The notes beneath the pieces were generated by a model. It saw only the letters and a program-made list of their open reading frames with translations, was not told where the DNA came from and did no database searches. The position numbers and the translations under genes were made by a program. DNA of 64,000 nt from NCBI GenBank assembly GCA_019058315.1, contig JAHPZH010000006.1:96001-160000 (forward strand). The letters run 5' to 3'. This stretch comes from Candidatus Helarchaeota archaeon. GTDB taxonomy: Archaea > Asgardarchaeota > Lokiarchaeia > Helarchaeales > RDOG01. Shown piece by piece: positions 28,466 through 29,793 of the stretch (position 1 is the stretch's first letter; every line of letters starts with the position of its first letter).

Positions 28466-28591
28466 TGGAGCCTCAGCCGGGGAACGATCCCGGGACCTTT
28501 GCCTTTCTGGCAGATATTATTACCAGGGCAACGCTTTACCGTTGAAATTTTCAGATCGGCATGATTTTTCTACCAACTGAGCTACTGAGGC
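28466..28591 (-). tRNA. tRNA-Thr(GGT); introns at 22/23 (28536-28569, probably two tandem introns) and 37/38 (28505-28520); CCA encoded
   Basis: Spliced: GCCTCAG TA GCTC AGTTGGTA GAGC G TTGCC CTGGTAA GGCAA AGGTC CCGGG ATCGTTC CCCGG CTGAGGC TCCA; anticodon BHB helix CTGG/CCAG. Confidence 0.9.
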
Positions 28592-28601
28592 GTAAATTTA
28601 A

Positions 28602-28758
28602 TGGTGCGGGGGATGGGAGTTTCACCAAAATATATAATATTTCGGATTCGAACCCATGAACTCCTACGAGACAGGATCTTAAGTCCTGCGCCGTTCGGCA
28701 CGTTTGTATGACCCCATACAAGTTGTCTCTTTTGTTTTACCAGCTTGGCTACCCCCGC
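28602..28758 (-). tRNA. tRNA-Leu(TAA); introns at ~21/22 (28694-28736, 43 nt) and 59/60 (28619-28646, 28 nt); CCA encoded
   Basis: Acceptor GCGGGGG/CCCCCGC, anticodon arm CAGGA CTTAAGA TCCTG, long variable arm; BHB helices TGGT/GCCG and TTCG/TGAA. Confidence 0.92.
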
Positions 28759-29379: not shown

Positions 29380-29603
29380 TGGTGGGGTTGAAGGGATTTT
29401 CACCGAAATTTCGATTATTTCGGATTTGAACCCTTGATAAGTCCTCTGGATAAAACTCGTTCATCCAAACGAGTTACTCCTAGTGGTACGCTCCAAAATT
29501 ACATCATCTGGAATCAGTATTTTTATTCTATTTTTCTGGAGCCCGTTGTCATACCGTGTTTTCTTAAGCTCACAATATGTGAACACATCTAGACCACAAC
29601 CCC
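29380..29603 (-). tRNA. tRNA-Trp(CCA); four introns at 15/16 (29559-29588), 37/38 (29475-29535), 43/44 (29441-29468) and 59/60 (29397-29424); CCA encoded
   Basis: Removing 30+61+28+28 nt gives 77-nt GGGGTTG TG GTCT AGCACGGTA TGAC A ACGGG CTCCAGA CTCGT TTATC AAGGG TTCAAAT CCCTT CAACCCC ACCA; BHB helices GTCT/AGAA, CTCC/GGAG, ACTC/GAGG, TTCA/TGAA. Confidence 0.88.
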
Positions 29604-29636
29604 TTTTTATTCAGCTTTTTTAGGAGGTTTTTATGT

Positions 29637-29793
29637 GAGAAAATAATATTTTACCGTGTTCGGAACGAGAACGGATGGTTCCATTGGCCTATGGCCGACC
29701 ACGAATGATCAGCTAACTGGATTTCTCGTTGGCTCTCGCACAACAGAAGTTCCAATAACGCACCAAATGTTTAATTCGGCATATTATTTCCTC
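29637..29793 (-). other. BHB processing stem flanking the permuted 5S rRNA
   Basis: 13-bp outer stem GAGGAAATAATAT (29793-29781) / ATATTATTTTCTC (29649-29637), central helix GCCG/CGGT, 3-nt bulges AA|T and AA|A. Confidence 0.85.
29651..29774 (-). rRNA. rrf: Circularly permuted 5S rRNA gene (canonical 3' half 29774-29706, TTCG linker 29705-29702, canonical 5' half 29701-29651)
   Basis: 5' half TGGTCGGCCATAGGCCAATGG...CCGTTCTCGTTCCGAACACGGTAA has loop C (CCGAAC); 3' half TTAAACATTTGG...GCGAGAGC...AGCTGATCA supplies the helix II partner, helices IV/V with a GAGA loop and the helix I partner. Confidence 0.9.

Follow-up and report, generated by a model that had tools for sequence, protein, structure and literature searches.

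According to our analysis, the minus strand between positions 29793 and 29637 of the window (the whole stretch of DNA analysed, 64,000 nucleotides from a Candidatus Helarchaeota archaeon) carries a circularly permuted 5S rRNA gene, in which the 3' part of the RNA comes first and is followed by a UUCG-capped helix I and then by the 5' part. Its leader and trailer pair with each other and enclose a motif of the bulge-helix-bulge (BHB) type at which the two parts would be cut free and rejoined. Permuted RNA genes rejoined at a BHB are known for tRNA and SRP RNA, and the anatomy of this locus points to a 5S rRNA gene of the same kind. Our reading as a whole is that the only detectable 5S rRNA of the genome is permuted and rejoined through this motif, that the permutation is old, and that the likeness of its splice core to that of a nearby tRNA-Leu intron comes from constraint and coincidence; we hold it with fairly good confidence. 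The features of the locus are the following.

29781 to 29793, minus strand: leader strand of the 13-bp leader/trailer helix (h' of the BHB), GAGGAAATAATAT, pairing in full with 29649 to 29637
29774 to 29780, minus strand: GCCG (29780 to 29777), the leader half of the 4-bp central helix, with the 3-nt bulge AA/U (29776 to 29774), assigned from BHB geometry
Between 29775 and 29774, minus strand: leader-side cut predicted by the BHB cutting rule
29706 to 29774, minus strand: 3' part of 5S rRNA, with UUAAAC (loop B side), the 3' strand of helix II, helices V and IV, and the 3' strand of helix I (nhmmer, 3'-half profile, E = 0.0012)
29702 to 29705, minus strand: UUCG tetraloop capping helix I, where a normal 5S rRNA has both of its ends (sequence reading and covariation)
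29651 to 29701, minus strand: 5' part of 5S rRNA, with the 5' strand of helix I, loop A, helix II, helix III, loop C, and the end CGGUAA (partial RF00001 match; nhmmer, 5'-half profile, E = 6e-9)
29650 to 29656, minus strand: CGGU (29656 to 29653), the exon half of the central helix, with the 3-nt bulge AA/A (29652 to 29650), assigned from BHB geometry
Between 29651 and 29650, minus strand: trailer-side cut predicted by the BHB cutting rule
29637 to 29649, minus strand: trailer strand of the leader/trailer helix, ATATTATTTTCTC, pairing in full with the leader, also in the minimum free energy (MFE) fold

The identity of the gene as 5S rRNA was established with profiles and by comparative folding. 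The Rfam model RF00001 gives a partial match of 21.6 bits at the locus, covering model positions 1 to about 51, that is, the 5' half only, and the gathering cut-off of 38 bits, which refers to the full model, is not reached; a low score confined to the 5' half is what is expected of a permuted gene, and a colinear relative (L004) scores 65.5 bits with the same model. When separate profiles for the 5' half and the 3' half were built from 17 colinear Asgard 5S genes and used with nhmmer, the 3'-half profile matched the locus ahead of the 5'-half profile (E = 1.2e-3 and 6e-9, respectively). Across the 5.8-Mb genome (12 contigs, 94% complete), RF00001 has no match with an E value of 0.001 or less, and the one weaker match (E 0.13) is the permuted locus itself, which is the only detectable 5S gene of the genome; a missed copy is possible at 94% completeness. 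An alignment of 41 permuted genes (A1) folded by RNAalifold yields helices I (capped), II, III, IV, and V, with compensatory changes at all 30 of the 30 predicted pairs, and the capped helix I itself covaries (A1 columns 83 to 87 with 99 to 103). Profiles and fold together display the five helices, the three-way junction of loop A, the conserved loop C (CCGAAC), and the loop E region, and UNCG-type caps recur among the permuted 5S genes of relatives. Comparative folding was used since MFE folding of the 124-nt exon in circular form did not arrive at the 5S structure (z = -1). A candidate relic of the lost 3' half past the trailer (AGCTGA at about 29612, taken from the Rfam alignment) was dismissed as a chance match of six letters.

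Only about 33 nt separate the 5S trailer from base 1 of a tRNA-Trp gene that is heavily interrupted (window positions 29603 to 29637, minus strand), and the 5S gene and the six-gene tRNA array may form one transcript. A TTTAT-type box is found about 25 nt upstream of the 5S leader. In the related genome G003, a tRNA-Leu gene lies about 1.2 kb from the 5S gene on the same strand.

The flanks of the gene were described in an earlier, sequence-only reading of this DNA as a BHB intron opened in its loop, and this description holds, with a helix of 4 bp, bulges of 3 nt, and pairing flanks of 13 bp. The central helix CGGU/GCCG carries the bulges AAA and AAU on opposite strands, which is the core geometry of an hBHBh' motif, and the same geometry (strict 4-bp helix, 3-nt bulges, flanking helix) is seen at most of the permuted loci surveyed. 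The flanking helix h', 13 bp long here, covaries in relatives: among 38 of them, 7.6 of 8 positions are paired between cognate leader and trailer, versus 3.4 of 8 for non-cognate combinations of flanks from different families, the permuted loci compared include 35 distinct leader 8-mers, and the leader bulge is AA/N in 36 of the 38 distinct relatives. The MFE fold of the precursor contains the 13-bp leader/trailer helix (z = -4.5) but not the central 4-bp helix, GCCGAAU being paired elsewhere, which counts against the BHB reading. The outer exon-exon helix h is also absent, as GAACA next to the bulges does not pair with UAAAC, so that the motif is of the relaxed HBh' kind, which requires an enzyme of broad specificity. 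The genome encodes two open reading frames with an EndA domain (C12:5422-5676, 184 aa, and C1:331438-331698, 204 aa), together with RtcB, and two separate EndA-domain open reading frames fit a heteromeric, broad-specificity endonuclease.

By analogy with the SRP RNA of Thermoproteus and from the anatomy of the locus, we propose that a short precursor would be transcribed, that its leader and trailer would pair to form the BHB motif, that the splicing endonuclease would cut each bulge behind its second base, and that RtcB would join the exon ends. The exon predicted in this way spans 29774 to 29651 (124 nt), its 5' part closing with loop C and CACGGUAA, and joining 29651 to 29774 gives CGGUAAUUAAAC, equal in length to the colinear consensus CggAAguUAAGc. 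Splicing would thereby restore CGG-UAA-UUAAAC and release an RNA of 124 nt in which the UUCG loop closes the natural ends. When the standard rule is applied, cuts in all three of the junction registers described below recreate the canonical 12-nt segment of colinear genes (CNGAAGUYAAGC), and the BHB reading thereby passes a strong internal check. The RNA so produced would most likely be a covalent circle, as the recurrence of stable UNCG-type caps argues that the loop is kept and not trimmed.

The layout is not peculiar to this genome. A 5S match above the Rfam cut-off was obtained in only 49 of 151 Asgard genomes (G041 in our genome set is presumably Odinarchaeum LCB_4), and one of the 49, G136, which is the only one above the cut-off in a 41-genome sample of the class holding the closed Heimdallarchaeum genomes, turned out on inspection to be permuted. 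We retrieved 72 sub-threshold loci and examined them with the half profiles and a BHB finder. The permuted layout, with the 3' part, the capped helix I, the 5' part, and pairing flanks, was found in families f1 to f4, f6, f8, f9, f11, f12, f16, f18, f20 to f26, and f28, permutation being confirmed at loci from about 20 of the 30 Asgard families. The strict BHB finder failed at some f8 loci (leader hairpin), at G051 and G061 of f16 (nested intron), at several f4 loci, and at G001 (mismatch in h'); these were read by eye, and most of them were excluded from the statistics. At f8 loci, including L067 to L069 of Heimdallarchaeum type, an extra leader hairpin of about 30 nt is located between the flank helix and the central helix, and the f8 spliced junction has one extra A (CUGAAAGUUAAGC). 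Judged by this distribution, the permutation appears to long predate the studied lineage. Permuted encoding would also account for the lack of a 5S gene in the closed Heimdallarchaeum genomes as published, their authors having written that 5S genes "could not be predicted" (PMC8813620). Our literature search found no paper describing a permuted or circular 5S rRNA in archaea.

Colinear 5S genes are present in f5, f10, f13, f15, f19, and f29. Apart from the gene of G153, treated below, the 5S hits above the Rfam cut-off are 118 to 122 nt long and intron-free. Family f5 belongs to the same class as the studied genome, and its gene is colinear and intron-free; a single ancient origin of the permutation therefore needs reversions, or else registers A and B arose separately, and if register A arose on its own the ancestral-state argument weakens.

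The junction occupies three adjacent registers, assigned by placing the cut after the second base of each 3-nt bulge. Register A (CGGN AR/A with NYCG AA/U) is found only in the order of the studied genome (f1 to f3), register B (YCRG AA/A with CYGR AA/G) in f4, f20, f21, f23, f25, f26, and f28, and register C (CACG GA/N with CGUG AA/A) in f6, f9, f11, f12, f16, f18, f22, and f24, while f8 has a C-like variant (CCUG AA/A with CAGG AA/A). Within f11 (L080 to L084), genus g46 (L082) uses register B and genus g21 register C, and the leaders are otherwise alignable, so that the junction slides by small changes over short evolutionary distances. The comparison of flanks thus indicates that the junction has slid over three adjacent phosphodiesters. 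Most of the central helices (CACG/CGUG and YCRG/CYGR) are unlike a D-loop.

Archaeal BHB introns occur in the 16S and 23S rRNA genes of Thermoproteales and Desulfurococcales, and to our knowledge none has been described in 5S rRNA; those of G153, G129, and the Atabeyarchaeia would be the first. The colinear 5S gene of G153 (f10; L114:301-452) is 152 nt long, and its Rfam alignment breaks directly after CGGCAGUUAA. It contains a 32-nt BHB intron (AGUU AA/A ... GACU UC/G) at UUAA/G, the removal of which restores ...CAGUUAA^GGCUAGG and makes the gene match its relatives; the insertion site is 4 nt 3' of the junction of the studied genome. The permuted 5S of G129 (f25; L107) has a 30-nt BHB intron in loop C (UCCG AA/A ... 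CGGG AA/C), splitting CCGAA/CCCGG, and its sister genomes are without it. In both closed Atabeyarchaeia genomes (G051 and G061; L086 and L087), an extra BHB element of 29 to 30 nt is nested exactly at the junction with duplication of CGUGAGA, and because the motif CGUG AG/A is duplicated, two rounds of cutting and joining would be needed; their family mate G071 (L088) has the simple form without the nested element.

Among the closest known counterparts is the SRP RNA of Thermoproteus tenax and T. uzoniensis, which is permuted and circularised (Plagens et al. 2015, PMC4731332). As in the Asgard 5S genes, a universal structured RNA is encoded there with swapped halves and a leader/trailer BHB, the gene was 'missing' from annotations, and the host is rich in tRNA introns. 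In that system the tRNA splicing endonuclease cuts the precursor and the ends are joined into a circle, as demonstrated by RNA-seq and an enzyme assay, whereas the Asgard 5S case is read from sequence; the SRP RNA case is limited to two species of one crenarchaeal genus, whereas the 5S case extends to most of the families sampled and has a sliding junction. Circularly permuted tRNA genes, known from Cyanidioschyzon merolae and Thermofilum pendens (PMC3978253, PMC3218864), likewise have the 3' half upstream of the 5' half and a BHB at the new ends, with a circular intermediate made by the splicing machinery. In permuted tRNAs, however, the linker is removed by RNase P and tRNase Z to leave a linear product, whereas in the Asgard 5S a stable UNCG-type tetraloop, for which no processing signal is known, closes the natural ends. 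Permuted organellar 5S rRNAs share the permuted gene order with the Asgard genes (Valach et al. 2014, PMC4267664) but have no BHB, have no rejoining proposed for them, and reportedly remain linear as RNA.

The sequence-only reading had proposed that a tRNA D-loop intron moved into a look-alike site of the 5S gene, which was permuted afterwards. All of the strings that it quoted at the 5S, tRNA-Leu, and tRNA-Thr genes are present where it placed them, and the elements on which the comparison rests are as follows.

28602 to 28758, minus strand: tRNA-Leu(UAA) gene, recovered by intron removal and aragorn
28694 to 28742, minus strand: D-loop intron of tRNA-Leu(UAA), UGGU AA/A ... GCCG AA/C, 43 nt (28736 to 28694), validated by aragorn after removal
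28536 to 28569, minus strand: 34-nt D-arm insert of tRNA-Thr(GGU), with AUGCCGA (28562 to 28556) and ACGGUAA (28542 to 28536); both strings and the CGGU/GCCG pairing are present

The tRNA-Leu intron is about 1 kb from the 5S gene. Its 5' side reads TGGT AA/A at 28742 to 28736, and its end, TGCCGAA at 28700 to 28694, is followed by C (GUGCCGAA); among combinations of up to four introns, removal of this 43-nt D-loop intron and of a 28-nt T-loop intron gives the only tRNA-Leu(taa) that aragorn accepts. The 5S leader ends with the same TGCCGAA, as claimed, and the tRNA-Thr insert does hold ATGCCGA and ACGGTAA. Applied to the whole tRNA array of the window, the combinations gave two near-identical solutions for tRNA-Thr(GGU), an ambiguous result for tRNA-Trp, and none for tRNA-Met. 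The T arm of tRNA-Thr(GGU) (28466 to 28520, minus strand) reads CCGGG-AUCGUUC-CCCGG in place of the usual UUCGAAU loop and may contain a hidden small intron or a variant T loop.

Outside the core the resemblance ends. With the last 7 nt excluded, local alignment of the tRNA-Leu intron to the 5S 'intron', made up of trailer and leader, scores 3, versus a shuffle mean of 5.5, so that identity along the intron, the mark of a transposition family, is lacking and the likeness is confined to the BHB core. The warning already attached to the shared motif, that it is short and partly forced by pairing, is borne out: its CC is imposed by pairing to GG in both exons, and TGCCGAA occurs six times in the window versus 3.7 expected (at least six in 15 of 100 shuffles). 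A blastn-short search of the genome with the 5S leader and trailer gave only A/T-rich, low-complexity matches, and a genome scan for YGGY/GCCG BHB motifs in a D-loop-like context disclosed no intron family, returning only tRNA-Leu (the tRNA-Thr insert was identified by eye). In our reading, held as part of the whole and with the same fairly good confidence, the likeness between 5S and tRNA-Leu is constraint plus coincidence and not descent: each of the two exons has GG and then U and A, to which the intron is obliged to be complementary, and the bulges are A-rich. Two observations make pure coincidence uncomfortable. The tRNA-Leu BHB pairs UGGU with GCCG through two U.G wobbles, and in the other tRNA introns of the genome, a small sample, exon U has A as its partner 14 times and G a single time, which makes the identity of the hexamer somewhat unlikely under a crude null; and the tRNA-Thr insert repeats the CGGU/GCCG helix where no exon constraint applies. 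The idea that flank similarity is no greater than pairing predicts agrees largely with the data, the similarity being absent in relatives, with the two wobbles left as an oddity.

The background for these comparisons came from a census in which 1.43 million strict BHB candidates were spliced genome-wide and each product was scanned with aragorn, giving about 15 credible single-intron tRNAs; most tRNA genes contain several introns and escape the method, and the sample is therefore small and biased to single-intron genes. Without any splicing, aragorn detects only 26 uninterrupted tRNA genes in the 5.8-Mb genome. Twelve of the 26, including three for tRNA-Cys, are gathered in one 4-kb minus-strand cluster (C3:627504-631635); the cluster is unlike the intron-rich arrays and may belong to a mobile element or virus.

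The transfer proposed by the sequence-only reading would have a tRNA D-loop intron copied, in the ancestor of the order, into 5S at CGGUAA as a look-alike of UGGUAA, followed by permutation through tandem duplication and loss or reintegration of a circle. We deem it highly improbable, although it starts from real similarities: the ends GCCGAA and the 5' bulges AA/A are identical in 5S and tRNA-Leu, both exons are YGGU, the tRNA-Thr insert reuses CGGUAA/A and GCCGA, and a span of 1.3 kb on one strand contains the three loci. The tRNA-Leu D-loop intron is also old enough, being at the same position in five of six genomes of the order (G000, the studied genome, G001, G002, G004, and G005, but not G003), and in Thermoproteales there are documented cases of BHB introns copied to new BHB-forming sites among tRNA genes (Fujishima et al. 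2010, as cited in PMC4731332 and 10.64898/2026.10.13.758758). Those families, however, as described in the citing sources, have high identity along the whole intron, whereas 5S and tRNA-Leu share 7 nt of the BHB core only, and the preprint reports hardly any intron families common to different tRNA types in Asgard archaea (10.64898/2026.10.13.758758). The relatives speak against a tRNA donor as well. The 3' end of the tRNA-Leu intron is GCCGAA in G000, GACCAG in G001, ACCUAU in G002, AGCCAU in G004, and ACCAAA in G005, whereas the 5S leader ends with GCCGAA in G000, G001, G002, G003, and G006, GUCGAA in G005, and UCCGAA in G004; among the five relatives of the order with both loci none has matching ends, the match being limited to the studied genome. 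GCCGAA is thus widespread in the order for the 5S leader and, for tRNA-Leu, seen only in G000, a polarity opposite to a tRNA-to-5S transfer. The look-alike site fails in the same way, as the D-loop-like exon CGGUAA is confined to f1, the sister families f3 and f2 having CGGCAG and CGGAAG, and the permuted layout is found in about 20 families, mostly with helices unlike a D-loop. Whether relatives have their permutation points elsewhere had been put forward as a test of the idea; they do only insofar as the point is shifted by 1 to 2 nt among lineages and most helices do not resemble a D-loop. A jump of a tRNA intron into 5S would have provided a rare concrete donor for an archaeal intron gain, and it is not upheld. 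The same polarity, together with the atypical U.G wobbles, the closeness of the three loci on one strand, and the lack of any D-loop-like YGGY/GCCG BHB in the genome besides tRNA-Leu, would suit a recent local exchange in the studied lineage only, by short-tract conversion or parallel mutation among the 5S leader, tRNA-Leu, and tRNA-Thr cores, running from 5S to tRNA if it had a direction. However, a tract of 6 to 7 nt is too short to show conversion, the flanking intron sequence is unrelated, and the closest genome available for dating is G001; we consider such an exchange improbable.

As regards the origin of the permutation itself, the comparison of gene forms suggests that it probably arose, by a modest balance of the evidence, from a 5S gene with a BHB intron located past helix III and before the 3' strand of helix II. 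If a colinear gene with an intron is duplicated in tandem, a permuted gene with a ready-made BHB results, and such duplication is the usual model for the origin of permuted tRNA genes, some of those in C. merolae being both permuted and intron-bearing (PMC3728597); Plagens et al. similarly suggest that the SRP RNA gene descends from a variant with a simple BHB intron (PMC4731332). Of the earlier proposal, the general route of an intron followed by permutation is accordingly plausible, with comparative support from the BHB introns in the 5S genes of relatives, while the tRNA derivation of that intron is not sustained. The survey that it recommended, for colinear 5S genes with an intron at this position or for tandem copies, was answered in part: the G153 intron lies 4 nt away, while a colinear 5S gene interrupted by an intron at precisely register A, B, or C was not found in the about 200 genomes surveyed, and no tandem 5S copies were found among the surveyed genomes. 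This gap favors the opposite sequence of events, in which permutation came first, by DNA rearrangement or by integration of a copy of a circular 5S RNA, the linear RNA worked, and the BHB evolved later with no 5S intron ever involved. Circular RNAs are common in archaea (PMC3326292), and linear permuted 5S rRNAs are reported from organelles (PMC4267664). An unrejoined break after helix III would, on the other hand, first have to be tolerated, 5S genes do have BHB introns at the junction itself, at a distance of 4 nt, and in loop C, the BHB comes for free when an intron-bearing gene is duplicated in tandem, and an intron-first history was favored by the authors of the SRP RNA case (PMC4731332). 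We therefore regard permutation before any BHB as unlikely. To return to the intron-first history, tandem duplication of a permuted gene would conversely give a colinear gene with an intron, and repeated interconversion of the two forms could explain their patchy distribution. A broader and more tentative possibility, which we rate as doubtful at present, is that BHB elements repeatedly land and slide in the short stretch separating helix III from the 3' strand of helix II, that the gene forms interconverted more than once, and that most Asgard 5S rRNAs are circular; this would explain the three registers, the nested intron, the colinear intron 4 nt away, and the colinear families among permuted ones.

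If that broader possibility is true, a covalently circular 5S rRNA would be part of the ribosomes of most Asgard archaea, the Heimdall and Hod groups closest to eukaryotes among them. The permuted gene predicts such a circular 5S rRNA, which can be checked for in existing Asgard cultures and metatranscriptomes, and the mobile junction, together with the ordinary BHB introns in the 5S genes of relatives, makes the origin of the arrangement testable by comparative genomics. In most of the Asgard lineages sampled, a universal ribosomal RNA is encoded back to front, and its production would depend on the tRNA-splicing machinery.
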